The notes under the pieces are model-generated. The model was not told where the DNA came from. It saw only the letters and a list, made by a program, of their open reading frames with translations, and ran no database searches. DNA of 47,764 nucleotides, from NCBI GenBank assembly GCA_001724265.1, contig MEDY01000226.1, positions 1 through 47,764 of the forward strand. The letters are read 5' to 3'. A program made the translations under genes and the position numbers. Origin of the DNA: Rhizaria sp. SCN 62-66 (taxonomy: Eukaryota). Each line of letters starts with the position of its first letter. Position 1 is the first letter of the stretch. Shown here piece by piece: positions 2,525-45,842 of the stretch.

Positions 2525-2555
<31 letters not shown>

Positions 2556-6867: not shown

Positions 6868-7124
6868 CTTTACGGTCGGTTAAACTCGTTTTAGAGATGT
6901 CAAAGAACCTCGTTTCCACCCCCCTTGCTCATCTCTTGCTTGCTCGCGGTCGACGGTTTGTGTCGGTTCGCAAAAATTGTCTGACCTGGCTCTCTCGTCG
7001 TTCCCGCCCAATGAAGAGCCCCAGATCACCCTTTCGTTCTCGGTTATGTTAACGTCAACATACATTTTATTGGCTGTCTCACATAGCTTTATTGTCTTTC
7101 TTGCTTATTTTGAAATTAGAAGCC

Positions 7125-15893: not shown

Positions 15894-15926
<33 letters not shown>

Positions 15927-16719
15927 CCGGAAGCGCCCCAGCCGCCGGCGTTGGCGGCGCGCGGGCTCGGGTTCGCAGCGCGAAAGCCCGCACCAACGCC
16001 ATTGGTAGCATTGACATTGCCATTAACGTAGCCATTGCCATTACCAGCAACGTTTCCATTGCCATTACCGTAGTAGTTGTTGTTGGCACCGTTGTTCGCA
16101 GGCACAGGACTACCCGCGGGGCCAACGGTGACGACGGCGGCGGCGGCCGCAGCGGCCGCGGCAACAGCGGCGGCTGTAGTGGGCGTCAGCATGCGCGGCA
16201 CGATCGACGCTTGGCGCTGCTGGCCCTGCGGCTGCGTTGGCAGCTGCTGCTGTTGCTGCTGCTGCTGCTGCATCGGTGGCTGACCAGGAGCACCGCGCCC
16301 ACGCATCTGTTGCTGCTGAGACAAGTACATCTGCATCTGTTGTTGCTGCTGCTGCTGCTGTTGTTGCTGTTGGAGCTGAATTTGCACGAGCATCTGCTGG
16401 TGCGGCTGTAACTGCGCGTTCTGTCCATTTTGCACGAACTGTTGGGGCGGTGCTGACGGCTGCTGCATGCCGCTGCGCGCAGGGGGCAGCGCGGCAAAGC
16501 CAGCGCCAGCGCCGTTGTTATTGTGAACATTGGCGTTGGCACCGACGCTGGCGTTGACGTTGCCCTGGTTGAGTGTGCCCATGGAGACGCCACCGGTGGA
16601 GAATGCAGCGATCAGCGCCGCGGGCGGGAGGTCCGACGACAGATGCGCAATGAACGCTGCGCGCGCCTGCGGAGTCATGTTCTGCAGCGCGGCAAGCTGG
16701 CCTGGGTTGAGGCTGAGAC

Positions 16720-16754
<35 letters not shown>

Positions 16755-22700: not shown

Positions 22701-25700
22701 TGCGCGCCCAGGTCCGCACAGTACGACGCGTCGACGGGCATCGCGAGCGACGCCGAGTAGCAGGCCGAGGCGCGGGTCTCAGCGCCGACGCCGCAGGCGA
22801 CGTCACAGCCCGACCAGCCGCCCGGCAGCACGGTGGCCGCGAGCGTCGGGATGGTGGTGTTGATCGTGATAAGGCCGCCGAACGCGGTCGAGCCCGCGGC
22901 CTCGTTCTCATCACAGCTCACGGTCGCGTTGAGCGGCGCGCCGTTGGACGAGAGCGCCCATACTTCGTCAGACGTGCAGCGCCAGCCATAGCTCTGGCAT
23001 TGATACAACACGCACGTCTCGGTCGACGCAGGCGCGTCGCCGATAGACGCGCACTCCGAGGCCGGCAGCGCCTCGCCAGTGGTCGAGTGCGTGCACGTGA
23101 CCACTCGGGTGCGCTCGCCGGGCGGGTCTTCTGGGTACGTCAGGCACAGCTTCGCGCAGTCGGACCACGGGCTGTGTAAGAAGAGTTAGCAGCAAAATAC
23201 ACATGAAGTATCGGACGAGTGAGCCAAGCAAAAAAGATGATATATGCAATAGAAAGCCAACCGAATGAACCGAAGATTAGAAAAAAAAGGTGAATATTTA
23301 GCAAGTGAATATTTGTTGTTTAGACGTACCCGACATGCCAGACGCGGTTGTAGCAGTCGTAGTTAGCGCAGGGGACGACCGAGGCGGGCGCGACAAGGTG
23401 CGCGCAGAGCGATGAGTCGATGGTTTTGTTGTCCGATAGGCGGAAACACGTCACGGTGCGCGTGCGCACTGTGGTGTCGCAAGGCGCTAGCACGGTCGCG
23501 GTCACCTCGCCGATGGTGACGCCGCGCAGATCCCACACGATGGGGTCTTCGTCTAGGATCAGCGTCGTGTTATCTACGTCAATAGTCTCCGTGTAGGTCG
23601 TGACGACCAGGATAGGGTCCTCCACTGTAGGGTCCGTAATCTCGATAATGTCAGCGGTCTCTGTCCCGTCGGCTCTCTCGGGCATCACCTTGACGGGACC
23701 CTTTTGGTCGGGCTTGGCGCTGGTGGTGCGTGCGCGGATGCCCGTGCTGGCTAACACACTGGCTGCGGCGCTCGCGACAGGGACAGCGTCGACACTGCTG
23801 AGTACACTGCCGGCAGTGGGCGGAAGACATGGCCCGTACTCGCCCGCGAGCCAGCCGACCGCGGGCGTGGTTTCACAGGCCATGGAAAACTGACCTGTCG
23901 TTGACGACGTCTCTGTGGCGATGCAGCGGCCCGACGTCGTGCCCGCCGCGCACACCGCGCCTACGGGCTTGTGAAGCGCGTTGAGGGCGTCGGAGATCAT
24001 CAGCACGGCGGGATCGCTAGTGCACGTGGAGCCGAAGAGACAGCGCTCAGTGCACGGCGACGCCTCGTCGGGCCCGCACGGCGTGAGCCCGTAGCGGTCG
24101 CAGACCGACGGCGAGCACTCGCCCTGGACGCCGCAGTAGCCGACGCCCGAGACGCCCAGCCCTCGGTCGCAGGAGTCGCGCGTGGTCAGCAGGCGGCACG
24201 CGGTCGAGCAGCACGGCATGTCGTCCGAGCACTCGGCGCCTGTGCGCAGCTGACAGTACTTGTCGCAGCAAGGGTGACCCGCGGCTGTGAGCACCACGGA
24301 GCCCGGGTCACACTGCTCGCCGTCGTCCAGCACGCCGTTGCCGCACGCGGGGGTCAGCGCGGGTAGACAAGCCGCGCCGGACACGCGCTCAGACGCGTGC
24401 GCGGGCGCGACGTGGTTGATGACGTTCGTCAAGTGGTTGCACATCGGCGTGCGCGCGCCCGCGGCGGAGAAAGCCACGCGCTGCGGGTTAAGCGTGTCGT
24501 TGCTGGGCAGCGTGCCGTAGTTGACGTCAGTCTCAACGGCCATGACGCCACCGTGCGCGTCGCGTGGCGTGGCGCCCAGCGCCACGCCGACGTGCGCGAG
24601 GAACGGCAGAGCCGAGTCGCCCGCGAAGGACGACGCCGAGACGCCGACTTGGTTATTGCACAGCGAGCTGGCGTAGGGCGACGCAGTGGCTGCGGAGGCC
24701 GGCAGCGTGACGGGGCACGCGGTGAGCTGGTGCACCAGCGCGGCGGCGTCGTCGGGCGCGCTGGCGCGGTAGCGTGTAAGAGCGGGTAGGATACCGGACA
24801 CAAGCGCGGGGCACCCCGCGGCGTCGGGGTCGTCGCTGGGCGAGTCGTAGTTCCACGGCGTGGACTTGTTCGTCGACGGCGAGGTCATGAGCAGCACGCG
24901 CGCGGCCGCCAGATGCAGTGATAGCTGCGGCACGGTGATGGTGTTGGCCCAGGCCAGCAGCACGGCGACGCGCGAGAGCACGATCAGCGGCGAGGCGCCC
25001 GTGGCGAGGTAGTACCCGTAGTCGACCAGGAAGGTTACCGTGAGCAGCCGGGTCACGTCCTGATGCGGGATGCACTGCGGGAACGGTACCACCGTCTGCA
25101 GCTTCGCCTCAGTTGGATCTGTCGTTGTATTTGTTGTTGTTGTCGTGGTGGCCGTGGCCACGGCTGCCAACCCGGCGGTCCCCGCGGCCATGTCCACGGT
25201 GCGGTGGTACATCGCGGCGTCGGGAATGACCACGTCAATGGTCTCACGGCCATCAGCGGCCGCAGCGGCTGCGGCAATGTTGGGGTCGCCGGGCCCGTAA
25301 TAGCCGACGTTGAAGCCATCTAAGTAGCTAGGCAGCCCGGCGTCGGCTATCACGTCGATGATGACGCCCGACCCCGTCTCGGTCCCAACCTCCCCCTCGG
25401 TGCCGATCTCGGTGTCAATCTCGATCTCGACTCCGGTCTCCACTTCGGTGTCGTCGGTCTCAGCTTCAGTCAGAGTGTCGGGTTCGACCGTTGTCTCCAC
25501 GTCTGCCTGCGGGGCAAACACTCTGGCGCGGGTGCGAGCGCGAGCGCGGGCAAGAGAATGCGAGCGCGATGTACTCGAGCGAAGGCTCCGAGAGCGGGCA
25601 CTAGCCGTGCGGTGCCGCGCAGAGCTGGCGCTGGCACGAGGCGAGCCAGCAGAAGAGCTGACGGGACGCGACACGATGACTGAGCCGGGGGCCGGCGCGC

Positions 25701-26673
25701 TGCCGCCGCGGCGAACGCCGACGAGTCCTCGGCCGCCGCGCGCCACGGACGCCGCGCGTGCCTGGCGCACCGTCGCAGCGCCAGCGGCCGCTGTAGAAGC
25801 GGCGACGTTCGCAGCGAGGCTCTGTGCGGCAAACGCAGACTGCGCTTGCTGCTCTTGTTGCTGTTGTCTGTTGTTGTTATTGTTGTTAATCTGCGCGCGC
25901 AGCCCGTCCAGTCCCCCGCGCGCGACGCCAGCCGCCGCGGAGCTGGGTTTGCGTGCCTTGGCGCTGGCAGTGCTGGGGATCCAGGCAGCGGGGAGGACGT
26001 CCAGCTCGCCGAAGAGAGGACCGGAGATGCGACCTGCAACCGAAAGCGCCGATGCGGGCGTGAGCGCAAGGGCAGCAAGCTGGGCCGTCACAGGGACTGC
26101 GCGGGAGCGGGAACTTGGACTCGCGCTCGCGCTCGCGCCAGAGCTCGAGCTCGAGCTCGATCTTGAGTCAGCATTTGAGATAAAGCGAGCAGAGGAAGCA
26201 GCGGCTCTGCCAGACGCGACGGCCGCGGCCGCGAGGGGCGCGGCGGACGCTATACTCGGCATGTCAGCGCTTTCCGGCGGGATGATCGTGAAGAGTGCGG
26301 TGACAGGTGCCCCGTTTTGCTCGAAGGTGGCGTGGTACGTCAGCAGTGGAATCGTGATGTCTTCAGAATGGGTGTCGGATGTGAACACGGTCGCCGTGGG
26401 CTGAGTGAACAGGTTCGTTAACAGCGTCAGGTTGAGGTCGTAGGAGACAGACTCGGCCACAAAGCGCACGCGGAGACGATCTCCGAAGGGTGCACGCGTG
26501 TTGGAGCCCGGCGCGGGGAATGCAGCGGGCGTGAAGGACGCGAACGGGGAAGAGACCGAGGTGAAGGCAACATCGAGGGCTGAGAGCGGGGTGGGTGCTA
26601 ACCCTAAAGCGGCAACAGCTGGTGCTACAAGGCATAGCCACATCAACAGCATGTTCAGCACCACCCGCCACAT
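15176..26673 (-). CDS. Giant type-I membrane protein, ~3779 aa: signal peptide, prodomain-like region, inactive reprolysin-like domain, disintegrin, ~11 TSP1 (ADAMTS-type) repeats, EGF-like repeats, TM, Q/N/G/Y-rich tail; exons 26673-23330, 23171-15176
   Basis: The two large ORFs join through a phase-2 intron giving WHVG|PWSDC. Disintegrin CGNGVLDDGEQCDPG..CC..C. Repeated W.xG.W..C...CG.G...R.V.C. TM VIAASVAAAVAVLLLIVFIAV followed by RCSRARRKR. Stop TAA. Confidence 0.85.
16721..16753 (-). repeat. (CAG)11 polyQ run, one of several in the receptor tail (15896-17405)
   Basis: CTG array on the + strand. Confidence 0.9.
23172..23329 (-). other. Spliceosomal intron joining the two giant ORFs
   Basis: GTACGT donor, AT-rich body, GCTAAC branch point ~15 nt before the ACAG acceptor. 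Confidence 0.9.
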
Positions 26674-27206
26674 TGCTGCGGCTTCAGTCAGACGCGCCAG
26701 TGGCGCTGCGAGAAGGAAGAAAGGGAGTGGGCTAGTGCGGTCTCAAGGGGCCAAGTTAGCGTCAAAAACGATCTATTAAAGGATCAAGCTGTCGAAAATA
26801 AAATACCGAAAAAGGTGATTAGGTGAATTAAAAAACGTCAATTAAGATAAAACTTCAAACAGACCGTTACACGACAGTGAGTATGCACGCGTGACGTTTT
26901 TGTTAATCATCCGAACCCATCTCGAGTCGGTTGGCTGATTGAGACTGAAGTCAGGGTTCAAACAGTCGAAGCCACGTGTTCTAGCCGAAAATGTTCGAGT
27001 TTGCTTGTTTTCCTTCCTACAGCACAGAAAAATGCAGGTGATTTCGCTAGTCACCATGTTGAACTATCTATGTATTCTACTAACCAATGTCATACTATCA
27101 TATAATGCCAGTAGATCTGGCCGATAGGCTTGGCCTCTTCCAGCTGCTCTTCCCCTCACTCGTCATCATACCTAGCAAACGCCCTCACCCGCGCGCCGCC
27201 ACGCAC

Positions 27207-28382
27207 TCATGCCCGACCCGCGGCGGCGACGGTCTGCTCGACCTCCGCGCGCGATGGCATCGACGGCAGCGTGCCCTTGCGCGAGACACACACCGCGGCG
27301 GCGGCGGCGGCGCGGCCCATCGCCTCGCGCGCAGGGCGTTGCTCGACAGCCCAGGCGGCTGCGAAGACGCCGCGGAAGCAGTCGCCCGCGCCCGTGGTGT
27401 CGACCACGCGGCCGCCGATCGGCGCCGCGGCCGCCACGCTCGCTTCCACAATCACATCGCTCGCCGACACGGCCACAGGCGTCGCGGCACCATCGGCGGC
27501 AGCGTTGCAGTTCTCGCTCTTGCGGTCGCTGTCGAGCGCGGCCTGGGTGGTGAAGAGGATGGCGCCGTGCTCGCCAAGCGTGAGCAGCACGCGCCGCACG
27601 CCGCGCGACAGCAGCGCCGCCGCCGCGGGCAGAATCGGTGTCGGATCAACCTCGCACACGCCCCACTTGTCGCCGTTCCCATCAGTTGCAGCCATCGTCT
27701 TGACGGCGTCAGCGCTGAGGATGTCAAGCGGCACGTCGGCGCCGGCAACGCGCGCAAGCTCGGTCTCGTTGAGCGAGATGAGCGCAAGGTACGGCAGCAC
27801 CGCAGTGTCGATCGCACTGGCGCGGCCGCCGACGTCGAGCATCGCCGGTACGCGCGCGGCGGCGGCGGCGCGCGCCACGGCAAGGTTCACGGTGTCGGGG
27901 ATCTCGCGCTGCAGCAGCACGGCGCCCGCGGACGCCACGGCGGCGGCCTCGGCGGCGGAGAGTGCGGCGCCCGAGTCGGCGTGCGCGGGCCACTGCTCGT
28001 TGGCGCCCAGCGCGATGATGATCGAGTTGTGCGAGGAGGCGTCGAGGATGATGAAGGCCTGGCCCGTGGGGTGCTCGGTGTGGCGCGTGACGAACTGCGT
28101 GTTGACGCCGCAGTTGGCGAAGGCAGAGAGGAACATGTCGCCATGGCCGTCGGTGCCGACCTTGCCGACGAAGAAGACGTCATTCTTGCTCTCAGCTCTG
28201 TCAGATTTGGCAGCGTCGAGGTACTTGGCGGCGGCGCCGGCCTGGTTAGAGCCCTTGCCACCGGGGCCGATCATGCTCTGCACGCCGTCAACGGTCTCGC
28301 CAACTTTAGGGACAGACTGCACCTCGATGTAGATGTCAGCATTTGCACTGCCGACGACCACAAGGCTCTTGTTAGACGACAT
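27207..28382 (-). CDS. RBKS: Ribokinase (PfkB family), 391 aa
   Basis: VVVGSANAD, GGKGSNQA, LLQREIP, NETEL and VDTTGAGDCF motifs. Stop TGA. Confidence 0.93.
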   Translation of the reverse strand: MSSNKSLVVVGSANADIYIEVQSVPKVGETVDGVQSMIGPGGKGSNQAGAAAKYLDAAKSDRAESKNDVFFVGKVGTDGHGDMFLSAFANCGVNTQFVTRHTEHPTGQAFIILDASSHNSIIIALGANEQWPAHADSGAALSAAEAAAVASAGAVLLQREIPDTVNLAVARAAAAARVPAMLDVGGRASAIDTAVLPYLALISLNETELARVAGADVPLDILSADAVKTMAATDGNGDKWGVCEVDPTPILPAAAALLSRGVRRVLLTLGEHGAILFTTQAALDSDRKSENCNAAADGAATPVAVSASDVIVEASVAAAAPIGGRVVDTTGAGDCFRGVFAAAWAVEQRPAREAMGRAAAAAAVCVSRKGTLPSMPSRAEVEQTVAAAGRA

Positions 28383-28874
28383 CTAAGTTGCGTCTGGAGT
28401 AGTAAGATTAGACAAGCAAACGTGAGAGGACACCTTGAGATATACAAGTATAGATTTGCATCCCTGTCGCGAAGTCACTTAAGTATCATAGGAATCTAGG
28501 TCGTCACGATTGACAGTTACGTTAGCGACATATTTATCCTCAAAGTAGAGGTTCTCGGTGCTAGCCGGGAATGGCCCGAAGAGCCTCAGTCAGCAGCATC
28601 GGCTGAGGTGGCACGTTTTACAGAGTGAAACCCAATCTTGCAGTCCGTCTATTGCGATATGCAACGTAGATCCTGAAACGCCCGGGCTAATATAAGCTGG
28701 TGTTGCGTTCGACTGGCATTTTATGCTGCTATATCACCCTACGATGTTGTTTGAAGCTAACTCACTGATTCTTAGCCGAAACGCTCCTTCACTCTTCCGC
28801 ATCCGCTCGGTTTTATCGATAGGATCAACACACCCTTGGGCCACGTTACAGCTTCATTTAGCCTTAATATTTAG

Positions 28875-30500
28875 ATGCCTTACAAGCACGGTCGCAGCGC
28901 GTCGCCGGCGCGTTACGTCCCGCAGCACGCCTCCTCGGTGGATACCTCCCTGGTTCACGCCATGCAGACCCACTTAGCTCCTGCTGGGCGCGCGCGGTCC
29001 CAGTCGCCTGCCCGGCCGCAGTCGCCCGCGCACGCGACGTCGCCCGCGCGTCCGCAGCATCAGGCCCAGGGGCAGCACGTCCGGTCCAAGTCCCCGGCTC
29101 CGCGCGCGCAGCTTGTGGTCGCCACCTCCCGAACTGGCAGCAGCAGTGGCGGGCACTTCCACGGCAGTGGCAACGATAGTCCCAAGCACGCTCACAACCA
29201 GCAGCATCACCAGCAGCATCACCAGCAGCATAAACATCATCACCAACAGCACAATAAGCACCAGCACAACAAGATCGCGGGGGCTCCGCTCGCGACGCCC
29301 GCAGCCGCGTCCCCACGCGTCCTCAGCACTCAGAAGATCATTGCCACCTCCGCCGCTGCGCCTGCCGCTGCGCCTGCCACTGTGCCTGCTGTTGCTGCTG
29401 CGGCGGCATCGCCTGTGGCCGCGACGCCTACCGGCACGCCCCGCGTGCTCGTGGTGACGGCCGTTGCCAAGGATGGCAAGGACCACGGTCACGGCCCGGG
29501 CCAGAGTAAGGCCAAGGCCAAAGGCCTGGTGAAGGGCAAGAATATCGCGATCAGTGTCGGCGGCGCCGTCGTTGTTAAGAAGGCCCAGCTGCAGCCCGCT
29601 GCTGCCGCCACCGCCGCCACCGGTGCCGTGAGCCATGCCGCGGCCGGCCCCGTCGCCGCCGGCCCGAGCGCGATGACCGACAACCCTCTGGTGGCGGCAT
29701 TCCTCGCGCAGGCCGCACCGCCCCCCGCGCCCGCCTTCGCCCACGCCGCGCACAGCGCCGCCGCCGCGTCGCTCGGTCTTTCGGGCTCGACCGCCAGCTA
29801 CAACGCCTCAACACACAGCGCCTCCGCGCACGGCGCCGAAGCGCGCTCGCCGGGCGCCAAGAAGCGTATCCGCACCAGCATCGGCGCCGCGCACAGTCAA
29901 AACCTCGCTCACGGTCACGTTGCTGCCGCGGATGGCAGTGCCGCGGACAACGACGTCCAGTTGCCTGCGCCGGTGACGACAAGCTCTATTGGCCGCGCGC
30001 CGCTGAGCATCACCACGTCCGCCGCGGCCCACGGTCACAATCTCGCCCACAGTCACGTTGGCGGGCACGCAGCTCACGGCCACGCTGCTCACAGTCTCCA
30101 GGGACTGGCCCACGGTTACTCGGCGGTGGACCCGCGCGCGTTGTCATCGCGTCTCGGCTTGCCCGACACGGTCCTGCCCGCCAACGCCAGCGTCGTCGTC
30201 CAGGTCGTCACCAAGAACCTCCCCGCTGTCCAGAGCGCCAGCCACAACAGCGCGGGCGCAAGAGCATCTTTCAGCGACAGCGGCGACGCCGCCGCTGCTG
30301 GTGCGCCGGCGTTGCGCAGCGGCAGCGGCAAGGGCGTTGTGATCACGACGCGTAAGCGGTCGCTGCCGGCCAACGCCACCGTCGACGCCGACGCCGCCGA
30401 GCCCTGCGAGCCGGAGCTGCAGCAGCTGCAGCAGCTGCGCGATCAAGACAATGAGTTCGAACGCGTGCAGCAGCAGCAACAGCAGCTGCAACAACAGCAA

Positions 30501-30534
<34 letters not shown>

Positions 30535-32309
30535 TCTTGCAGCCGCACTTGCAGCACGAGGCCGAGGCCACCAGCGCTCGTGCCCCGCAGTCGCTGCACA
30601 GCTCTCTGCTGCGCGCGCAGCACCGGTCCGCTCTGCTGGCCTCGGCGCCCGCCGCCGCGTCCCTGCTTTCTGCGGAGGCGCTGGCCTCGGGGCTCAGCGG
30701 CGCGGCGCACGTCTTCGTGCGCAACCTCTCTGCCGACCTGGACGAGGCCGCGCTGCTGCGCGAGGTCTTCACCGACGGCGACGTCGACGTGCTGCGCTGC
30801 GTGCTGCACCGCCACGCCGACTCTGGCGCACCGCTGGGCTCGGCAGAGCTCGCGCTGCCTTCGCTGCGCGCCGCGGAACTCCTGGTCACGCGTCACCAGG
30901 GCCGAGTCGTGCACGGCCGCCCGCTGCGCCTCGCGCTCTGCGCGCAGGCCGCGCTCAAGCCGCTCAACAACAACGCGCGTAGCACCGCGGCGGGCTCTGC
31001 CGGCGTCGGCTCTGTGTTCGCGCACTTCTCGCCCCCTCCCTCCGCAGCGGCGCACGTGCCCGTGCCCGTGCCCGCTCCCGCAGCTGCAGCCGCGGCGGGC
31101 CCGGCGCCCGAGAGCGCGGCCGTGGCGGCGGCATCAGAGGCCGCGCTGGCCGCAGAGCGCGCCGCCGCTGCCGAGGCCGCGACAGTGCTGTCGACGGGCT
31201 CTGACCCCGTGTATCTGCACGCGCAGGCGTTTCTGTCCCCTGAATACCTCGACGTCGCCAACGCGGCGTACTCGAGCCAGTACCTCACGCACCCGCTTGC
31301 TCGCACGCTGCTGCCGGCGCCACCGCGCGTGGCCTTCGAGCCGAGCTGCGGGCAGACGTGGCACCAGTTCGCGCTGCTCGCTATCGCGCGCTCCGACCGG
31401 TCGCGCGCGCTCGCCCGTCCACCGCTGCCGCAGCAGCTGCAGGGGTTACCGCCGCCCGCGCCGCTTCCGCTGGGTTGCGTGTCGCCCTTCGCGCATCCCT
31501 GGGCGTCGTTTGACGGCGTCGACCTTCGGCGCAACGCGGCGTGTCTGCGCGCCGGCGCCGCGGGCCCCGTGCGCGGGGGCGTCCACATCGAGGCCGTGAT
31601 CGACGGCGCCGATGGGCTGAGCTCGCAGCAGATGGTCGACCACCTCCGCAACGCCGCCGCCGACGAAGGCATTCCGCGGTACGAGCGCGACATGACGCAG
31701 CGACTCGACTTCGACGCCGCGCTGGCAGCGGTCGAGGCCGGCGGGCGCAAGCTGGCGCAGCGGTGGAGCTGGCTCGACGTCGAGCTGCAGCCCGCCGACA
31801 CCAGCGCGACCGAGTTCGCGCTCGAGTGGGAGCCGGAGGGCCGGGAGCGGCTGCGGCGCGTGCTGGCCGAGGACGCGCGCCGCGACCGCGAGCGGTGGCG
31901 CTGGGAGCAGGAGGAGCGCGAGCGCCGCGAGAGGTCCGGCCGTGAGAGTGACCGCGACCACAACCGTGATTTTGACCGTGGCTTTGACCGTGATCGCGGC
32001 CGCGACTTTGACCGCGACCGTGCGCGCAGTAACGGCAGTGGCGGCGGCGGTGGCGGCGGCGGTGGCGGTCAGGGGCGGGACTTTGACCGGGGCCGTGACC
32101 GCACGCCTCCGCGCTCTGGGAACGGTCATGCTCAAGGCAATCGTGGGTTTGACCGTAACCGTGGCCCTGGTGGGGACCGTGGGCGTGACCGTGAGCGCGG
32201 TCAGAGTCGCGATCGCGAGGGCACCGGCAACCGGGGGCACAACAACGGCTCGAACCGGCAGGGCTCCGGCGTGCAGGGTCAAAGCGCGCATATTCCCAAC
32301 GCAGCTTGA
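28875..32309 (+). CDS. 1144-aa RNA-binding protein: one RRM (~30708-30940) plus an RD/RE/RG-rich C-terminus
   Basis: RNP2-like VFVRNL, RNP1-like PLGSAELAL, GRPLRL end. Low-complexity SPAR, QQHH and polyQ segments. Stop TGA. Confidence 0.78.
30468..30533 (+). repeat. CAG/CAA polyQ run
   Basis: Direct reading. Confidence 0.9.
31948..32220 (+). repeat. Degenerate (TTT)GACCGY repeats encoding DRDFDRG units
   Basis: Multiple TTTGACCG and GACCGC/GACCGT copies. Confidence 0.75.
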
Positions 32310-32725
32310 TCATGACAGGTAAAACAACGAACAATGTAACACTTCTTTGTTTGACCCGTCCAGGATATCACTTACGCTGGCCGTGTGGGACGACCTAGTT
32401 TTTGAATTTATTTAAGCTGTACTTGCCAACCTTAACAAACATGTATCAATACACCTTCTCAAATTTAAATCATCCTTTGTCTGGGTCTTTCCGTTGATGC
32501 GCTGTCATTGACACCTGGTCAGCAGCAACAACTTCAAGTCCTATTCGGTACTGCTGAAATTTATCTAGGTAATTTCAAGTTAAAAAATCGTTTTTTAGAA
32601 TTTAATTAGCAGTACTACAGTTTATCTTGCAGAAAATTATCACATTTAAGTCTAAATTTTGTATTTAGATCCCAACCCCCGTTGCAGCAGGTTATTAAAG
32701 TTCGCACTGCGTGTCAGTGAATACG

Positions 32726-35314
32726 ATGGATCGTCCATCAGCTCATCATATGCCCCACATCGCAGAGCGTGCTCGGCGGGCATCACTACGCCAACTAGAT
32801 ACATCGCGTTCTGTGTATTACGCCCCGTTAAAGTGCGCTATCGCAAATGTTTCAGTCTCGTTCGCACATGAGAGCGTGGCATCAAGCATGATAGTCGGTG
32901 ACACTGCACTGTCTGCTTCACTCACCGTGATCTCGCCCACAACGCGCGCTGTTGTTGCGTCTCTGCCAGTCGTGCTTCATCGCCAAACCCAGGCTTTATA
33001 GAGTGCGTACTGCTGTCTCTCTCCTGCGACTGAGTCCGCAACCAGTCCTAGTGCCGGACCATCGTCTCTGTTATCACCGCTGCCGCATCCGACCGTCACC
33101 CCAAGCCCAACCACAACTCAGACCTTATCGCCAAGTAACAACAAAGCGCAAGCAACAACCGCTTACGCTATTGCTATTGCACCAGTTTATGGTCCGCTGC
33201 GGCTGGCGTTGCGTGAAGACCTGGGCTACAACCCCAGCATGAGTTCTAACAGCGAGTTCCAACTCACTTCAAGTCAAGACTGCGTCTCGAGTCACGATGT
33301 GAGCTGTGAGTTCTCTGCAAATACCACAGATGCAGCTGCCTCAGCACCTGCGTCGCCTGCAACATCTAAGGGCGCTGATGCGGACTTTGAGACAGGCGTG
33401 TTTGCCTTTACTGGCACTCCACACCCCCTGCAAAGAAGCATCGATTCTGACTTATTTCAGCCACTTGTTAACAGCACAAGTACCCATAGAAGCGCGAGAA
33501 ACTCTCCGCATCAGGGCAGTCGTCGCAGTAGCGTACACGCGCTTTTTGTAGCATCCCGGACATCTCTTGCCGTTTCATCGGCCACTGCGTCACCGGCGCT
33601 TTCGAGTGCTACGATAGGACAAGACAGCCTCAGCGATGTTCTCAGGATCATTATTCCTAAACTGGGTCTTGTTTGTGATGTTTCACCGCCGCATCTAGGC
33701 AACCGCACGGCCAACGATAGCCAAATCAATCCGAGCGGCGCTCAATCAACAATCAAAACTGTTTTGAATGTTGTCGCTCTTACACCACAGTCTGAGACTG
33801 CTCCCGTCGCCAACCTTACTGTGCAAGTGGCGGTTGACTTCATCATGCCCGATGCTGCTGGCACAAATATTCCATTTGTACCAGGGTGCGCTATGCCCAC
33901 GGCTTTAGTAGCTGTGTCTGCAGCTGACAGCGACCAGACGGTCAGCCGGCGTGCAACCTTTCCGTCTGGTCTGCCGCAGCGCGCACACGGCTCATCACCG
34001 CCTGCTCCCAGACCAGCCGATAGTCCCACAACAACCAAGCTCCAGTACTATTCATCAACCTCCTCTCAGAGTGACAACGACTGTGACCATGAATCCGCCA
34101 ACGCACAAGAGCACCGGCGTGGATCTGAACGGACAGCACCGTGGCCCACGCGTGGCGACGGCGGTCGGCTAAGCGAGTTCTTACAAGGATATCTTGATAC
34201 ACAGCGCCCAGCGCAAAGTTCAAATACTCAAGCGCAAGAGATGCAAAGTTCGCAGCTACCGCGCTTGCCACTGCAATCGCCAGGACTTCATACTGCTTCA
34301 AGCCGAAACACAGTCACCATCTTGATGACGCCAGCTCCGGCTGTTACACTTCCAGTCAACGCAGCTGGAACTGACACCGTCGTCGCAGCATACAACGCTG
34401 AGAGTGTGCGCCTTGCGGAACGACTTCGAGCAACAGCAAATCGACGCAACTCACTGCATCGCCTAAGATCAGTCGCTTCACAGGTTGCTGTTGCACCACA
34501 ATATTCCACACACGAGCAGCGCACCGTAGTTGCCGCCGCACCGTCATCAACACCACTTCCTACGCGCACTATTGGAGCATCGCTGTTGCAGGGTTCTTCA
34601 GGGCCTTTATTGCATCCAGCTCCAACAATTTCCACAAGACCTGCCGAAAACGTGATTTCGGGACTTCCAGGTCTCGAGAGAACTCCGTCGCATGAGGCGG
34701 CAGCGCGCTACGCGTCCGGCCTCGCGGCTGCGCAAAGACCTGGTTGGGCGCTGCGCTCGCTCGCTGTTGCCCCACGCAATATTGCTGCTAGTGCAAGCAC
34801 TCATCAGCAACAGCAGCAACCACAACCATTGCAGGAGCAGGAAGGTGACGCTCGTGAACAAGCAACAGCATCTGGACGGGCACTGCGCATGCCAGACCCG
34901 CGCAATGTGCGCCGCGGCGCGCGGCTTGTTGAAGCTATTGCGGCCGCAGCAGGCATTCTAAATGCCGAAAACAGTTTTTCACGCAGATTAAGTGGTGGTG
35001 GAGAGGGTGGTGAGTCGTCGCGACTGTCGTCTTTGGCGGAGGCAGTGGCTGCACAACGACGGCACGCAACGCAGACGCAAGCGTTGCTTGCAACACTACC
35101 ACTTGAGACTGTGACAGTAGCAGACGAGACGGCGTTACGGCGTCAGGACGCGTGCTGCGGTGTATGTCTTGCTGCGTACGTGCGGGGAGATATCCGGCGT
35201 TGTCTGCTACCATGTGGTCATGCGTTCCACAAGCAGTGTGTGGACAAGTGGCTTTGGGTTAAGATCAAGTGCCCTGCTTGCTGCGGCGAGGTCACAGGAA
35301 AAACACATCAGTGA
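32726..35314 (+). CDS. RING-H2 (C3H2C3) E3 ubiquitin ligase-like protein; start uncertain (ATG 32726 with in-frame TAG at 32999, or ATG 33239)
   Basis: C-terminal CGVCL..Y..GD....LPCGHAFHKQCVDKWL....CPAC. The frame is open from 32699 to 35314 except for one TAG. Stop TGA. Confidence 0.8.
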
Positions 35315-35648: not shown

Positions 35649-38600
35649 TTAGCTCTGCGTGTTGCCCGAGCACGTAAAAGCAGGAGGTGTCATCTCTTCG
35701 GGCAAAACTGAGCGCTGGAAGGCATTGAAGGCATACTTCTTTTTGCCAGTGTTGCGGATCACGTTGGCACGGCGCGTGCCCTGACCGCGTAACACGTTCA
35801 TCACGCCCACGGCCTCGCGCTCGCCCAGTCCCAGCTGCTTCAGCGTGCGCGCCGCTTCCCACGTTACAGCCATCGCCGTGCGGTCCTTTGCGCTCTTGCA
35901 TGACACCGTGCGGCCCGCGCCAAGTGCGCGTGTGAGTGCCGTCGCCACAGTGTGCGCCGTCAGCGCGCGCCGACTGCCCTGCGCCACCTCGTGCTCCAGC
36001 CTCAGCTGCAGAGCCACCAGCGCTGCCGCCGATACAAGCGGACCCGACGCAGCTGCGGCCATGACAGACGCGGCAGCAGCCGCAGCGCCCGCGGCGCCGG
36101 CGCTCTCGGCGGCTGCGGCGACCGCGGCTGCGGCGTCCGCGGCCAGCGCGGCGGTTTCGAGGCGCACGCGGCGCCAGACGTGGTCACGCAGCACCTTGGC
36201 GGCGTCGGCGTTGAGCTCGCCCTGGCGGCGCGTCTGCGCAAGCGAGAGCTTGTTCGCCAGCGCCTGGAGCTCATTGATCCCCGTCGTGAAAAAGGCCGCA
36301 GTGACGGGCACCAGCGGGCCCGCGCTACCAGCAGGGCCGCGCAGCTCCGCGGGCAGCCGTGCGTACAGATCAGGCGGCAGCAGCAGCGTCACCACGGGAC
36401 CCAACGCCAACGCGTCACCGACAGCAGAAGCGGCGGGCGCAGCTGTCGAGACGCCTGCGGCAAGTGCAATGGCGTCACCCGCAGCGCGCGCAGGGGCGCG
36501 CCCGTCGGCGCGGAGTGCGGCGGCCAGCGCGGATGCAAAGCAAGTCTCGACAGCCTCGGTCGCTAGGACGTCATCGCTGACGCCGCTGCCGCTAGCAGCG
36601 GCCGCTCTCGCACCCGTTGAGGGTAAGTTTTGGGGGCGTCTGGGGACGGCGGGCGCAGCAGATGCGCCAGAACCGCTGCCGCTAGTAGCATTATTGGGGG
36701 CGTTAGGCAGCGAGGGCAGAAAGGAGCCCGCAAAGGCAGTGTAGCGCAGCTCCGAGAGCGCGGGGCGGCCGTGGGACATCGGTGGCACCGACGATCCCGA
36801 CGCGACAGCAGGTGACGCGAAGGCCGCCGCGAAGGCCGACGGTGGCATTGACGCGCCGCTCGCGTTGCTGTTGGCGCTAGAGCTTGAGTTAGTGTGCGTC
36901 GTCGTGTGGCGCGGGTGCGCAGTCGCCAGCGTCGCGGCATGCGCATGGGGAGCAGGGTAGTTGGGACGAGCTGCCGGCGCGTTCGCACTCGTACCAGCAG
37001 ACATGACAGGGCTGTTAGCGGCACGAGCGCGCGAGATGACAAGCGGCGGTGCGGCGGCAACAGCGGCGCGCGCAACGGGCGACCAATGCAGCATGTCAGT
37101 CGACGTAGAGCTCGTGCTGTCTGCGGCGTTTGTGGCAGAATCCAGATGCGCGAAGTCGTGACACGCACCGGGCGTGAGAGTGCGCGCGGAGGCGGGCGTC
37201 AGCGGTGTGAAGTCGAGCGTAGCGCCCAGCGCCAGCTCGCCCCACTGGGCCTCGCCAGTGCTCGCGCGTCCCTCAGCCACGCACGCCTCGGCCTCTGCGT
37301 CGGCCTCAGCCTCAGCGTCGCCAGCGTGGAGCAAGACAGCGGTTTCCTTGACGACTGGGGCGCCGTTGACAAGCGGCTCCACAGAGAGGCTGAACGCCGC
37401 GTCAGCAACCCAGGCGTCAGTGCGCATCTCTGCCAGCGCCTCAGCCACAGCGGGAGTCGTCAACAGCGCTGTAGCCGCGGCCGCGATCTCGCGTGCCTCA
37501 CACTCATTCGCGCTGACAGCATTTTCGTCACCCAAGCCGCCGTTGTTAAGAAGAACGATGCCACGTGCTATGGGCGCGAGGTACGGCGCGATTGGGGCAA
37601 GAGCGGCGGCCGCGGCAGAGGCGGTGTCTGCAGCACTGCTGCCGGACGCCGCGTCCGTGTCGGGCACGCGGCAAAGCGGCGCGCGTGGTGCAAAACGAAT
37701 ATGCAGAGACGCGATCCAGCGGCAGGCCCACTCGAAGTCTGAAATCATGCAGAACTCGCTGCCGAACGTGGACAGGAACGAGTCCATGTGCAGCAGGTAT
37801 CCTGCGCGCGGCCACAGTGCCATCTCGCTCGCGGGTGCCGCGACCACCGACGCCAGCACGTCCGTCAGCAACGCTGACAGCGCCTGGCTCGTGACTGGCA
37901 CGCGACGTCGACGCAGCTCGGACACGGCGGCCTCAGCGCGCTCCGCAGCGGCCGTCAGCGAGGGCATGGCTGAAGTCAATGACGCCGCCGCAGCGCGCAT
38001 TGCGGACGCACTGAACGCCGCAGCCGGGTCGCCGGAAAGCGGTTCGGGCGTCACGGGTGCAGCGGCCGCGGCGACAGGGGCGACAGGTTTTACGGCGCCG
38101 TCCTCATCTTGCTCGCCGAGCGGCGGCAGCGCGAGCGTGGGGATCTGCCGTGACGGCGCGGGCAGCGTGCCGAACCGCCTCGCGTCGTCGCTACCAGCGG
38201 TGCCTGCAGTGCTGCCGACGAGGGGCGAGGGCGCGGCAGTAGTTCCGGTGCGCGCGCGCGTCATAGGCGACATGAGCGGCGAGGTCAGCGTGCCCGAGCC
38301 TGAGGCAGCGTTGGCCGCGGCAGCGACCGCCGCAGCGCCGGCGGCTTGCGCAGCCGCAACGAGCGCGGAAAGCGCGGCGCGGGCCTGCGTCGCGAGCGGA
38401 GTCATGCCGCCGCTGCGGTATGATAGGTGCGAGGCCAAAGCGCCAAACGTCGCGCCCGACAGCGCGATGCGGACCGGCGCGGCAGCGGAATCCCCGATGA
38501 GTTTAAGCGCAGGCGCAGCAGCGGCGGAGACTGGCCGGTACAAAGGCAGACGCGCGCGTGCGTCTGCGCGGTACAGCGTCAAGCGCGTGAGCTGCAAGTG

Positions 38601-41600
38601 CAGGTTCGTGGCGACGAGATCAAGCAGCGCAGCCTCCTTCTTGGCCGTCGAAGGCTTGAAGAAAAGCCCGCCGCAGACACCGCGCGTGGACACGCCGCCT
38701 AGCGCGCGCGCCGCGGCCGCCAGGGTGCTGGCCTGCGCGCCCGCGTCGGCGGTGGCAGACTGCAGCACCAGAGTCGCGCGCGGCAGGCGGGCCCGGTACG
38801 CGCGCGCCAGGGGCTGGTGCGCGGCGAGCAGCGCGGCGAGCGGCGGCAGCGCAGCGGGCAGCGCAAGCGCGCCTGCGGGCAGACTAGCGAGCGCAAAGTG
38901 GGCCGCCTCGAGCCCCGGCAGCAGCTCCAGACCAGGGTCGGCGCCTGCGGAGTCGGCCGAGTCCGCTGTGCTGGCTGAGGACGAAGTTCCAGTCACGGCC
39001 CCCGCTCCGGCTCCGGCTGCGCCAGAGGCTGAGCGACTCAGCGCCGCGCCCGCGGGCGAGAGCATCGGCGCCGCCGTCGCGGGCACGCTCACGGGGGCGA
39101 GGGGCGAGAAGCCCGGGGACGCAGGCACGGACAGCGAGCCGTGGCCCGTCGCGCTCACGGCGGCCGCAGCGGCTGTGATGAGCTGCGAGCGCGCGGTCAG
39201 CGCGGCGGCGTCGGCAGCGAAGGTTGCCGCCGCTGCGCGCGCGGCGGCGGCAGGCGCGGTGAAGGTAAACGGCGACGTCTGCAGGCTCTCGGTATGGACC
39301 ACGTCGGCCGCCGCGGTCTCTGTAGTGACTCCAATGACAGCGCTCGTGCTGCCGGTCTCGAACACGGCACTGAGCGCGTCGCTAGCACTGTTCTCGGCGT
39401 CGCTGCGGCTGCCATCCCGCGAGTCTGTGCTGGTGCTACCTGCGTTGGCAGTGGCGCTGGTCGGGAAAGGGAAGGCGGGGATGCGCGAGAGGAACGACGC
39501 AGTGCAGTAGCGGCCCGATAGCCCCACGCGCGCGCGTTGGCACGACGCCAGCGACAGCGAAACTACCGCCTGCCACCCGGCCTCGCCACCGGCAGCGCCG
39601 GTGCCCGCGCCGGCCGGGGGCGCGAGCCCGCCCAGCCCAGTCACGGCGGCGGCCGCGGCGGCTTGGGCCATCGCGGGCGTCACCCCGGGCACCGCGGCGG
39701 CGGCGGCCTGCGCGCGCGCGGCGGCCTCGGCAACGTCGACGTCCCCCAGCGAGAGCGGCAGCGCGCGAAGCAGCGCGGCGCGCGGGTGCTGCAGCAGGTC
39801 GCCCAGACCGCACGACAGCGAGGCGACCTCGTGGCACGACTCAGGCGCGGCGTCCTGATAGTGCTCGTCGCGCCGCGCGCGGTACAGCACCACGCGCACC
39901 AGCGTGCGGTCCAGCTGCGCGTCCGCGCCCACGCGCCACCCGCGCTCCTCCTCGCCCTCGCCGTCGTCATACACGCCGGCTGCAGCGGTGGCGCTGTCGC
40001 CACCCGTCTTGCGCTCGCCTTCACTGCTGTTCGAGACGATGGCGGCGGCGGTGGCGGCGGTGAAGAGTGCGCGGCGGGCGCGGGCCTTGAGCTGGAGCCA
40101 CTGTTGGCCGGCGCGTCGCAGCCGCGGGTCCCAGAGCGCGCCCAGCCGCACGGACCGCGCCGACAGCACGGCCTCCAGCGCGCCAGCCGCAGCGACGGCC
40201 GCGGACGCAGAAACCGCGCTGTGCGGCGGCTTCGCAACCGAGTGCAGCGCGTCTGGCGGGGATGACGTCGCGGCCGCCGCGGTAGCGCTAAGCGTGGCAA
40301 GCGGCGCGAGCGCGGCGGCGGCGTCGCTGAGCGTCGGCAGCCCGGCCAGCAGCGCGGCGGGTGCTGGCGCGGCGGTGGCGGGCAGGAGCCGCTCGGCCAC
40401 GGGCACGCTCACCGTCAGCAACGACGTGAACCGCGACGCCAGCAGCACGCTCGCAGCAGAGCCAGCAGAACCCGCACTAGCGGGGATGCTGTCAGTGGCG
40501 ACGTTGGCGTTGCTGCGGGCGCGGCGCTTAGCGTCGGTGAAATTCACGCCTGCAAGCGCGGCGGCAGCGGCGTCTTCAGCGGCCTCAGCTTCGTCCTCCT
40601 CGCTGCTGTCGGCATCGGCACCTGCCGAGTTGTCACCGTTGCCGTTAGCATCAGAGCGGGCAGGCACGCCAGTGACGAACGCGGCAATGGCAGGAGGCAG
40701 CGCAGTGGTGGCCGAGGCGGCGGGTCGCATCGTCTCCGTGCGCGCGACTTCGCGCCACGACTCGTTGACTTCCTCTTCCTCCGCCTCAACCCCATCGTCG
40801 TCGCCGCTGTCGCCGTCGCAGTAGCCGTACCCGCGCGCCGTCCCCGGCAGCGAACGCGCCACAAACACGGGCGTCGAGCCTCTACCGGCAGCGCCGCTCA
40901 CCCTGCCCGCGGTGCCATTTGCACTGGCCGCATTGCCAGCGCCAGCACCAGTGGTGATCGACGGCGAGCGCAGCCCGGCGGCCGCGGCGTCGGCGTCTGC
41001 GGCGTCCGCGGCGGCGCGGCAGTGGTTGGCCAGCAGCAGCGCGGCCTCGACGCCCGCCTCGGCGCCCGCTGTGGCGTCAAGCAGCTCTTCGTCGCGCTCG
41101 CGGTCGCAGTCGCCCATGGCCACCGCGCCGGCGCCGACGCCAACGCCGAGCAGCACCGTCGTGGCGCGCACGCGGGTCGCCACGTCGGCCGCGGCCGCGG
41201 CCGTGGCGAGGCGCGCGGGCGGGAGAAACGGGCGCAGCGACGCGGCACCCGCTGTGTGAGCGAGCGCGCGCGCGGGGGCCGCGGGGAGACCCGAGCCGCC
41301 CTCGGCCAGCGGCGCGAGGCCGAGCCCCGTGGGGACGGGTGTGTAGGGCGACAGCGGGGCCAGCGAGCAGTAGTGCGCCGCGGCGGCCGCGTGCGAGTGC
41401 GCGACGGCGGTGGCCAACTCGCCAGCGGGCGCGGCGGCAGGGTTGGTGGGCGCGACGGGCGAGGTGGACGCGCCGGGAGCGGGCAGTGCGGGCAGCGACG
41501 CCGCGTTGGCCGAGGAAGACGCGCTCGACGTCACCGCACTGCTCCCAGAGGCGAGACCAGGGCCAGCGCCGCCGGCGCCAGTGTGCGCGTGCGCGTGCGT

Positions 41601-44600
41601 GTGCGTGTGCGCAAGTGTAGAGTCGGAGGCGTACACGAAGCATGCGGCGAACCAGCCCTGCGGCATCGCGGCCGCCAGCACCGCCGCGTCCGCCGCCGCC
41701 GCCGCAGCGCCCGCCAGCGCCGCGTTGCCGCCTGCAGATGAACTCCTGCCCTGCGCCTGCGCCTGAGCCTGCGCGCGGAGATGTGCCGCGGTGGCGGGCC
41801 CAATGACCACGGGCGCGAGCGCGAGTCCGAGCTGGTCGACCTCCTGCGCCTCCTCGCCGCCCGCCAGCGCAAGCAGCCTCACAGCGCGCACGCTCTTGCC
41901 GCCGCCCTTGCCCGCACCAGCGGTGCCGTCGCGCCCGCCGTCTCTGGTGAGCGCGGGCAGCGGCAGCAGCGCGCCCGCGATGCCCGCCGCGCGGACTGCG
42001 GCGCGTGGACGGAACGGCAGCGGGTCGCGCGATGCGGGCACGTGGCGCCACCACCCAGCCCCACGTCGCCGGCCGGTTCCTGCGCTCGCACTGCTAGCGC
42101 CCCCCGCGCCCGCACCGCCGCCCGCGCCGCCACGCGCAAGCACGGCGAGGCTGCCAGCGGTGGCGAGCGCGGCGGCGGGCGCGGCGGCGGGCGGCGGCGC
42201 GGCGATGGCCAGGCGTAGCGCGCGCGCGGAGGCGTGTTTGAGCACGCGCACCCACTGCGCTGCCGCCGCGGGCGACTCGGTCTTGAGCAGCATCGTGCGC
42301 GTCGCCGTCACGATCTCGAACCGCCGCGGCGCAGCCACGGAGGCGGCGGATACGGCTGCGGCGGCTGCGGCGGCGGACGCAGCTGCGGCGGCGGCCGCGG
42401 TGGCCGAGACCGACGCCGCAGACCCCGTCACGGCGGCCTCTGTCGCGGCGGCCGCGGCGGCGTTGGCGTTGGCGCTGGCGCTCGCGGCGGCGCGCAGCGT
42501 TTTATGCTGCGTTTTGCGGTCCGCGTCGGTCGACACGAGGCGCACTGACCGGATTTCGGCTAGTGACAGCGCACCCAGCGCGCCCAGTGGCGCGAACAAT
42601 GTCTCCACGGCAGCCGCCGACAGCACCACAGGTACTGCACTGGCACCCGTGGCCGCTGCAGCGGCGACGCCGGTCGCGATTGCGCTGGAGCCGGGGCCGG
42701 TGCTGGCCGAGAGCGCCGCGGGCGGGACCGGGGAGCGGTCGAGCACGGCGGCCAGCACCGACAGCGACTCAGCCAGCGCGGCGGGTGCGGGCCGCTGCTT
42801 GAAGTAGATGACGAAGCCCAGCGCGAGCACGAAGAAGCGCGTGCGCCACGGCCGCAGCGAGAAGCCCGGCGCGTTCTTGCTTAAAGTGCCGAACACTAAC
42901 CCGCATCCGGCGGCGGCGCTCGCAAACGCCGACTGCGCGGAATCACCGCCTCCAACCGCCGCGGCGGCGCCGACGGGGCCGGCACGCGCGCGCAGCGGTG
43001 TCTCAGTGCCCTCGGCAGCGTGCGCGGGCCAGGATAGCGACCACACAGCCTGTGCGCGCGCGCGGGCCTGCGCAGCCGCGGCGGCGCGCGCTTGTTCTGC
43101 GGCGTGTGCGCGGGCCAGAGTCAGCGCGGCTGTCTGTGCCTGCACCTGCGCCAGCGCCAGCGGCGCGCTTGCGGCCTGCGGCGTCAGCGGCTTCGCCTGT
43201 TGCTGCTGTTGTAGTGGTGATTGCTGCTGTGGTTGCTGTTGCTGGAGCTGCTTCGTGCGGGCGACGTCATCGTCGTCGCTGTCTGAGTTGTCTCCTGCGC
43301 CAGCAGCGCCGTGCGTGCTGTTGCCGGCCGCAGTGAGCGCCGGGCCCAGCCCCGTGGCGACGGCAACCGACGCGCGCACCGCGGCAGCAACCGTGGCGGC
43401 CGTCGCGGCCGCGGCGGCGGCGGCCGGGGAGGGCCTGAGCGCGGGCGAGGCATCGCGGTCGCTGCCATCGTCCTCCTCATCGTCCTCCTCTTCCTCCTCC
43501 TCGTCGTCGTCCGCGCCCGGACCTGCTCCGGCGCCACCGCGGGGGGCAGCGACGACGGAGGCGTCGGCCTCGGCCTCTGGCAGCGGCGGCAGCGGCAGCG
43601 GCAGCACTATCGCCGCAGCGGCTGCGCTGTCTCCGCGGCTCGCGCGCGTGGTGGCGGTCGCCGGCGTCGGCGACTGCGGTAACTGCACCTGCAGCTGCTG
43701 CCCCTGCTGCGAGCCCCTTCTCCCACCAGCATTAGCACTAGCACTCGCAGTTAAAGTTACGGTGCCGGACGCAGTCGCAGTGAGAGTGAGCGTGGTGGAG
43801 GCGCGGCGTGCGCGCGCGCGGTCGGCCTCTCGCATGGAGCGCGCGCGCTGCGTAGCGGCCAGCAAAACCCGCAGTAGTTTGTCGCGGTCGCGGCGGGAGC
43901 GCGTCCGCAGCAGAAGCGTGCGTACGCCGGCGGCCTCCACTCCGCCCGCACCTGCAGCCGCGCCCGCGACGCTGGCCGGCGCGGCCGCGCTCAGAGCGCC
44001 CTGGGTAGCTGTTCCGCTCATCGTGAGGCTATTAGCGGCGGCATTTGCGGAGCTGCTTGCGGCGACGCTAGCGGTTAGGAGCTCAGTGAAGCGCGGGGTG
44101 GCGATGACGACGACAATGGCGGTCTCCGCGTCGGCTGCGGCGGCTGCGGCCTCAGCGACGGTCGCTGCGGCAGCGTGCGCGGCGTCGCCCCCCGTCAGCG
44201 GCACGGCCTCGGCCTCCACTGCCAGCAGCGCGTTCAGGTACGCGCGCTCGGCCTCGAAGTACCCTGCCGAAACCGCGGCCGCGCCCGCCAGCGCGGAGAC
44301 CTCGGCCGCGGCGATAGCCGCCACGGCGGCGGCGTTGGCTGCAGTGGTCGCGGAGGCGGAGGCGGAGGCTGCGGATGACGAATCGGACGCAGAGTCATCG
44401 TTGAAGCGGCCCTGGCCACTCGTTGCTGCAGTCGCAACACCGGCGGCAGTGACGGCGCCCGCAGGACCGCCGGCGGCGAGCGCGGCGGCGCCCGCAGCGG
44501 CAGCGGCAGCGGCAAGAGCCCCGGCCGGCGGCGCGCGCGCTGGCACTGCGAGTGCAAAGGGGCAGGGCGGCGCAAGCCCGAGCCCGTGCGCCGCAGCCAC

Positions 44601-45842
44601 GACGGCGTCGCCGGGCAGCGCGCCGACGATGGCGCTCAGAGGGAAGCGCTTTAGCGGCGCGCCGCACGACGCGGCCACCGAGGCGGCCTCTGCGGCCTCT
44701 GCGGCCTCCGCTGCGGCGACCGAGGAGTGGCCAGCAGAGACTGGGACGGTGTTGTTCGTCGGCAGAACGCTGTTGCGCTGGCGCGGGCGGTAGTAGCGCA
44801 GCCCGGCGGCGTCTGCAACAAGCGTGCGCGGCTGCCACGCCGACGGCAGCAGCGCGCGCGCGAGCGAGAAAGTTGAGGATAGAGCTGACAGGGCGGACGG
44901 CCGCAACTTGAGCACGTCGGCGACGGCGACGCCCACAACGGCCTCGCCCGACACGGCCGCAAAGCCGGGGCTCAAAGTCAAGCTCTGCCGCGGGCTGGAG
45001 GCCGCTGGTGGGAGGCTGCCGCGGACGTCATCAGCGGGGCTGCCCAGCGATAAACTCTCTGATGACTGTGCTGTCGTTCGCGGTCCAGAGCCTCTGTCAG
45101 CCGCTGCGGCGGATAGCGCAGCCGATATCTGGTTCCTCCCAAAACGAGCGCTAGCGCCAGCACCAAGATCATTGGCGTCAGGGTCTGCGTCGCCTGCAGC
45201 GGCTTCCGCGGCCGCGACCGCGGTGGCGATCGCGACGACCCAGCCAGCGGCCACGGCGGCGGAGGGCGCGCGGAACACATACGTGCGCCCCGGTCGTCCA
45301 GACACGTTCACGCCGGCGCCGCCACCGCCTCTAACGGCCGCCGCGTCGCCCTCGGAGATGGGCTGCACGCCGCCCGCGCCCGTGCCCGCGGAGTCTGATT
45401 CGGCGGCCGCCGCGGCGGTGGCGAGAGTGACTGTGAAGACGCGGTCCGCGGGGGCCGCGAAGGTCGCTTCAAGCGCAGCCAATGGGAGCGCGAGCGCGTT
45501 AAGCCCGTCAAGCTCGGCGGCAGCAAGCGCGGCGAGTGGGATCGCGCCCGCAGCGGCCGCGCGCGCAGGGTCTGCGGCGGCGAGCGCGGGGGACTTGTAG
45601 TAGTAGAGCGCGCCGCGCGCGGGGTCGCAGATGACGTGGCGGGACTGGAAGAGCTTCAGACCCGACGGGCTGCGCTTCTCAAGCAAGCCCTCAAAGATAG
45701 CGCCCGGCAACGCCGCCGCAGGGTGCTGCGAGGACGAGGTAGAGGTCTAGGAGGACGCGACGGGGGCGGAGGGGGGCGCGCGGGCTGCTGCGTGTGCGGG
45801 CGACTCAGGGCCGAACGCAGACGCCGCGGATGAGGGCTTCAT
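35649..45842 (-). CDS. INPP4: Inositol polyphosphate 4-phosphatase (INPP4) with three N-terminal PH domains, >3350 aa; start uncertain (ATG 45842 with in-frame TAG at 45749-45747, or an unseen upstream exon)
   Basis: Catalytic CKSAKDRT plus INPP4 blocks ATNLHLQ, SFLSTFGSEFCMISD, GINELQALA, NTGKKKYAFN. PH motifs FEGLLEK..WVVAI, WQPRTL..LRYY, GTLSK..WRTRFFVL..WVRVL. Stop TAA. Confidence 0.88.

Follow-up and report, generated by a model that had tools for sequence, protein, structure and literature searches.

The window analyzed here is the whole 47,764 nucleotides of contig MEDY01000226.1, from Rhizaria sp. SCN 62-66. Two of its genes, a RING-H2 gene on the + strand and a PH/phosphatase gene on the - strand, each contain one in-frame TAG close to the 5′ end, at 32999-33001 and 45749-45747, respectively, and in both cases the sequence preceding the TAG resembles coding sequence of the same gene. 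The reading that we tentatively favor is that UAG is decoded or leaky in the host, which is probably a cercozoan. The RING-H2 gene would then be one 862-codon coding frame starting at ATG 32726, in which the ribosome would pass the UAG at codon 92, either because this codon is poorly recognized as a stop or because it is read by a suppressor or near-cognate tRNA. Such a gene could reflect an early or ambiguous stage of a UAG stop-to-sense change, which would be tolerated mainly near gene starts, where premature termination wastes little. Readthrough itself, its amino acid and its efficiency belong to the inferred part of this reading.

The TAG at 32999-33001 is the sole stop among the 862 codons from ATG 32726 to TGA 35314 (TGA at 35312-35314). 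As an earlier note on this DNA had described, the frame is open from 32699 with this one interruption and encodes the peptides quoted there; the two open reading frames (ORFs) that it listed do share one frame split by a single TAG, although the start it gave for the second, 33209, is merely a TTG from a bacterial-style ORF call. Directly after the TAG, a 770-codon frame (33002-35314) runs to the terminal TGA. The frame has three ATGs before the TAG, at 32726, 32750 and 32888, and none after it until 33239. The candidate start codon of the long form (32726..32728) has the context acgATGg, with A at -3 and G at +4, and G+C content climbs from ~0.3 to ~0.55 just upstream of it, reaching the level of the gene at ~32700. 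The frame is thus made up of 91 open codons before the TAG (32726..32998; P(open) 0.034), the TAG in the context TTA TAG AGT GCG, 79 codons that contain no in-frame ATG (33002..33238), and a gene body of 691 amino acids (33239..35314), which is the form called in public assemblies as P0002. The gene body (33239-35311) has a G+C content of 0.56 and a GC3 of 0.47, versus GC3 values of 0.8-0.9 in neighboring genes. Its RING-H2 zinc finger domain (35153..35281; PF13639, E 4.6e-08) corresponds to residues 819-861 of the translation from 32699 and, at 33.6 bits, exceeds the curated cut-off of 27.3; it shows the C3H2C3 pattern.

The coding character of the two flanks was evaluated using codon models for three phases trained on 33239-35311, the score being that of the in-frame phase over the best other phase. 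Stop codons were excluded from the models, so that mere openness earned no score, and short-window noise made the test trustworthy only over the full 79-91 codons. Held-out 85-codon windows of the gene body gave a median score of 13.6 and were in frame in 30 of 31 instances. The segment upstream of the TAG (32726-32998) scored 11.7, a value reached by 31 of 1000 open-frame shuffles, and the segment downstream (33002-33238) scored 15.3, reached by only 2 of 1000. The gene body also has a clear three-base pattern, and both flanks matched its base frequencies at the three codon positions in the same phase. Across the 171 codons of 32726-33238, the gene's own frame contains one stop, the other two frames contain 5 and 6, and the reverse frames contain 12, 8 and 6. 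Dinucleotide shuffles of this region had 4.7 in-frame stops on average; P(≤1) was 0.040 and P(0) was 0.006, in agreement with the earlier claim that about 180 codons with a single stop would be unlikely for non-coding sequence. The open frame with its single TAG is more than chance.

Contigs from four sequencing runs were compared with the window. A 2,805-base contig of run X4, which is probably DNA, differs from the window at 10 positions over 32300-34875 and therefore derives from another strain; it is colinear with the window across the site and retains the TAG unchanged. The sequence error that had been raised as an alternative at this position is contradicted by this second strain, and the TAG at 32999 is not an assembly error. 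With codons read by eye, the X4 contig differs from the window at four positions in the gene body (2 synonymous and 2 non-synonymous) and at one position in 32726-32998 (Ile to Val). Depth arithmetic suggests that a contig of run X1 probably spans 32685-33038, also with the TAG unchanged. A low-depth contig of the same run has 10 C-to-T differences within 76 bases (33872-33947) that are common to no other run and may be due to error, DNA damage or local hypermutation. In the poly(A) RNA run X3, there was no cover at 32300-32773 and almost none at 32774-33247, and depth arithmetic places the start of the first contig near 33243; X3 likewise left two of the five gene-body bins uncovered, and nothing is drawn from this pattern. 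Among the contig rows listed, none showed a joint or loose end at 33001 or 45747.

In public assemblies the RING protein occurs only as a 671-residue or a 691-residue call, on 2 and 4 contigs, respectively, starting at ATG 33239 or at a GTG 20 codons later, and an exhaustive search yielded no form longer than 691 amino acids. Given that only these two forms are called, none of those assemblies would have a sense codon at the TAG site.

The TAG of the PH/phosphatase gene (35649-45842, - strand, stop TAA) is the clearer and stronger case. Here, within 45747..45842, ATG 45842-45840 is followed by 31 coding-like codons and the TAG (45749-45747), after which a PH-like domain and a 3,365-codon open frame begin. 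Scored with the gene's own codon model, the 31 codons reached 15.2, which 3 of 2000 open shuffles also reached, and of the real 31-codon windows of this gene 101 of 105 were in frame, their median score being 12.1. Two C-rich controls, a putative intron and a 5′ untranslated region (5′UTR), scored 3.0 and -4.9, respectively, and the coding signal sets in at ATG 45842. The PH domain match starts 17 codons past the TAG, with an E-value of 0.0029 that lies below the Pfam cut-off. The next in-frame Met is ~560 codons downstream of the TAG. Since no ATG is nearby, a downstream start is unavailable to this gene, and the UAG is either passed by the ribosome or spliced out.

The use of TAG was surveyed in 11 gene models built for the window. 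Five end in TAA, six in TGA and none in TAG; the earlier note had reached the same totals from partly different models, since the TAA at 23320 is not a terminator because it lies inside an intron, and a gene at 8816-9516 has been added. Its count of only two internal TAGs in more than 12,000 codons was also reproduced, at 2 in 12,573 codon positions, a count in which one 76-codon exon was read in the wrong phase. Decoding or leakiness of UAG would account for both interrupted genes and for the missing TAG terminators and, if inefficient, also for the survival of TAG only near gene starts. The proposal that UAG is a rare sense codon here is partly supported by the coding flanks, the second case and the lack of TAG terminators; no evidence was found that UAG is a general sense codon.

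Several observations weigh against UAG decoding, the prior probability of which would be low. The two internal TAGs contrast with ~115 predicted from position-specific composition, a depletion of about 50-fold, and TAG is therefore not a free sense codon. Both occur no later than codon 92 of their genes (probability 0.0065 for two randomly placed codons), and this N-terminal placement suggests something specific to 5′ ends. Both also fall among unconserved, low-complexity residues, so that a decoded amino acid would not be revealed by any alignment. No internal TAG is present in RFC, in ribokinase or in any other conserved gene of the window, and in-frame UAGs aligned to one homologue amino acid were not found among these genes. 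The absence of TAG from 11 terminators is weak evidence, having a probability of ~0.04-0.09 if 20-25% of stops were TAG. No tRNA gene was found in the window, nor does the window contain eRF1. No known leaky 3′ context is present at either TAG (TAG AGT GCG and TAG ACC TCT, both followed by A), and RNA folding downstream of the TAGs was no better than in shuffled sequence (z 0.29, -0.17, -0.63 and 0.24), giving no sign of a stimulatory structure. Lastly, 30-codon windows upstream of other genes sometimes scored 8-11 in the frame test.

Nuclear codes in which UAG alone has changed have been described in the rhizarian exLh (Sainouroidea, UAG = Leu) and in Iotanema spirale (UAG = Gln), according to excerpts of Panek et al. 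2017 (PMC5304391). For exLh, these excerpts report 384 UAGs within the reading frames of 71 genes, located where leucine is conserved, and 56 UAA and 15 UGA terminators (PMC5304391). As in both of these organisms, as excerpted, UAG is the only stop codon found inside coding frames of the window, whose genes end only in TAA (5) and TGA (6), and the present host is, like exLh, probably a cercozoan rhizarian, a kinship that counts toward the decoding reading. Unlike exLh as there described, the window has 2 TAGs in 11 genes, near the N-terminus, unconserved and ~50-fold depleted, a difference that also speaks against decoding. Independent UAG reassignments are reported for phyllopharyngean ciliates in the part of PMC11687900 used here; in these, too, UAG alone changes meaning in the nuclear code, and the change is genome-wide. 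No cercozoan UAG change other than that of exLh was found in the literature. Programmed UAG readthrough occurs in retroviral gag-pol, with a downstream pseudoknot, and in tobamoviruses, in the context UAG-CAR-YYA. The window genes share with these systems one in-frame UAG between two coding parts of one frame, but their TAGs lack CAR-YYA and a stable fold, and are located close to the N-terminus instead of preceding a C-terminal extension.

An unlikely explanation, though the one that best survives among the rivals, is that the TAG is a working stop, the protein is the 691-residue form from ATG 33239, and the 171 codons upstream are a recently disabled N-terminus or a long in-frame upstream ORF. 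Strong depletion of TAG in coding frames is what would be expected of a stop, ATG 33239 has A at -3, and the public gene calls start at this ATG or at the GTG 20 codons later. Given the strain differences described above, and a gene that beyond its RING domain resembles a fast-evolving orphan, loss of a disordered N-terminus could moreover be tolerated. Indeed, homologue searches found no relatives of the protein beyond that domain, and the gene may therefore be a young or fast-evolving orphan. An exhaustive HMMER search gave 5,689 matches at E ≤ 0.001, of which, among the 150 listed, all but the gene's own cover the RING domain only; one match, P0124, is a multi-RING repeat protein. Word-based searches for N-terminal homologues returned just the gene's own cluster and no short protein, and searches of the metagenome, genome and viral contig collections were negative for the RING protein. 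Against a working stop, 33002-33238 is coding-like and has no ATG, so that the 691-residue model leaves coding-like sequence lacking a start. An out-of-frame ATG also precedes ATG 33239; it opens an 18-codon frame (33189..33242, + strand) whose TGA overlaps the downstream ATG (ATGA). The second gene would be left unexplained, with 3,365 codons open after its TAG and no in-frame ATG for ~560 of them, and two independent nonsense mutations, both TAG and both N-terminal, would be unlikely in 11 genes (1/9 times 0.0065).

It is doubtful that the TAG instead closes an intron or outron as its final triplet, in which event an unrecognized 5′ exon, or else a spliced leader, would be ligated to 33002 (to 45746 in the second case) and the mRNA would not contain the stop. 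TAG is the only stop that could occur in frame at an acceptor, and the introns of the window do offer a precedent. Seven were found, 114-478 bases long and all beginning with GTACGT, GTACGC or GTATGT (GTAYGY), at 7184-7340, 5246-4769, 4721-4556, 6810-6697 (putative only), 6333-6149, 9381-9227 and 23329-23172. Four are well supported because splicing restores PWVEKY joined to RP in RFC, the BEM46-like Q..L.Y.P in a hydrolase and W..W..C in a TSP1 gene. Six of them interrupt the N-terminal portion of the gene concerned, a bias toward 5′ ends that suits a splice acceptor at either TAG. Two of the seven acceptors are TAG, of which the one at 9229-9227 falls in frame and delimits the following exon, which counts against UAG decoding as well as for splicing. 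At TAG 45749, pyrimidines make up 84% of the 25 preceding bases, as many as at the best real acceptor in the window. Upstream of TAG 32999, where the earlier note had pointed to a resemblance to a 3′ splice site, the corresponding tract is 64% pyrimidine (60-84% in real acceptors here); an AG lies within it at -10, a CTRAY branch motif could not be seen by eye, and the site is mediocre as an acceptor.

Donor sites, in turn, argue against a splice in cis. No GTAYGY donor is present on the + strand between 27848 and 35162, and a canonical intron ending at TAG 32999 is unlikely for want of such a donor upstream. Five-of-six donor matches at 32419 and 32661 were considered, and no ATG-bearing exon could be read from the sequence before either. 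For the second case, the only full match, a GTACGT at 46752 (1003 bases upstream), gives an exon in the wrong phase or without an ATG. Tiny in-frame GT..AG segments of 33 and 36 bases around the two TAGs were rejected, since both begin with GTCG and do not resemble the seven real introns. Each TAG follows sequence that is coding-like from an ATG and has gene-like G+C content, versus 0.32-0.42 in four of the seven introns; two of the seven are pyrimidine- and C-rich instead of A+T-rich. The X4 contig is colinear across the RING site, though X4 is probably DNA.

A spliced leader would require no donor in cis. Trans-splicing exists in the cercozoan Paulinella, as reported in the sections of PMC6053224 at hand, and the RFC of the host groups with that of Paulinella, with weak support (85/79). 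The RING TAG resembles both the phase-0 intron with the TAG acceptor at 9229-9227 and the Paulinella leader acceptors as there given, in that a frame opens right after a pyrimidine-rich ...TAG (PMC6053224). It differs from intron 9381-9227 and from those acceptors in lacking a GTAYGY donor, in having a coding-like upstream flank and in needing a leader that carries an AUG, and the Paulinella leader as quoted has no ATG (PMC6053224). Two coincidental coding-like outrons would also be needed. The sequence before other starts counts for this explanation. The ATG of the ribokinase gene is immediately preceded by TAG (28383-28385, -), as is that of gene 28875 (28872-28874, +); in the small gene at 6867 the ATG is immediately preceded by AG (6868-6869, -), and for 8 of 9 confident starts an AG occurs in the 12 upstream bases. 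These AGs may be 5′UTR-intron or spliced-leader acceptors, or may reflect a start-context preference.

That the frame is a non-coding 5′ leader open by accident, or a sequencing or assembly error, is very unlikely. In its favor, P(≤1 stop in 171 codons) is just 0.04, the case was chosen by an earlier reader for its openness, and the G+C-rich window has ~70 open-frame pairs split by one stop with at least 80 codons on each side, nearly all of them shadow frames. Against it, both flanks show a frame-specific codon pattern, the same TAG is present in the contig of an independent strain, and there is an independent second case.

If UAG is decoded, gene callers truncate proteins of this host, and the RING protein would have 862 rather than 691 amino acids. 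It is possible, albeit somewhat improbable, that the host is an uncultured activated-sludge cercozoan at an early, ambiguous stage of UAG reassignment, in which UAG has been purged from gene ends and is decoded or leaky only within the opening few dozen codons of a small number of genes. To our knowledge, very few eukaryotes have a nuclear code in which UAG alone has changed, and the intermediates predicted by the ambiguous-intermediate theory have hardly ever been seen. If true, this would be a testable intermediate of UAG reassignment in a free-living rhizarian from an accessible habitat. If the TAGs are splice or spliced-leader acceptors, the finding would be ordinary, yet would extend trans-splicing beyond Paulinella.

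The window as a whole is a gene-dense eukaryotic stretch in which genes are G+C-rich (GC3 0.8-0.9) and spacers are A+T-rich. The remaining gene models are a PLAC8-domain gene (1162-1611, +, stop TAA), an alpha/beta hydrolase (1997-5364, -, TAA), a small membrane protein (5921-6867, -, TAA), an RFC subunit (7125-8325, +, TGA), a small gene (8816-9516, -, TGA), a gene at 9846-13451 (+, TGA), a TSP1/disintegrin gene (15176-26673, -, TAA), a ribokinase (27207-28382, -, TGA) and a gene at 28875-32309 (+, TGA). In the TSP1/disintegrin gene, an intron of ~158 bases at ~23329-23172 (-; GTACGT...ACACAG) connects frame 23320-26742 with frame 15176-23185, and the two form a single gene of ~3,779 amino acids with TSP1 and disintegrin domains. 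An Rfam search of the window gave 0 matches.

The sequencing runs containing the window are wastewater and activated-sludge libraries. The best named relatives of the RFC subunit are in Rhizaria, with identities of 60% in Paulinella, 59% in Mataza and 55% in Lapot and Plasmodiophora. In a maximum-likelihood tree of 24 rows, the RFC subunit falls with three cercozoans (support 94/95); because the tree represents a single gene and few taxa, the host is only probably cercozoan. An Atlas search with the RFC query returned no usable taxonomy. A scan with the closest RFC relative yielded, besides the contig described below, only distant RFC loci (L032, L042 and L045), none bearing on the TAG. That contig, L001, belongs to a different metagenome collection and is 5.5 kb long; it overlaps the RFC region and encodes an RFC protein identical in sequence to that of the window, first exon included; the organism is therefore present in at least one further data set.

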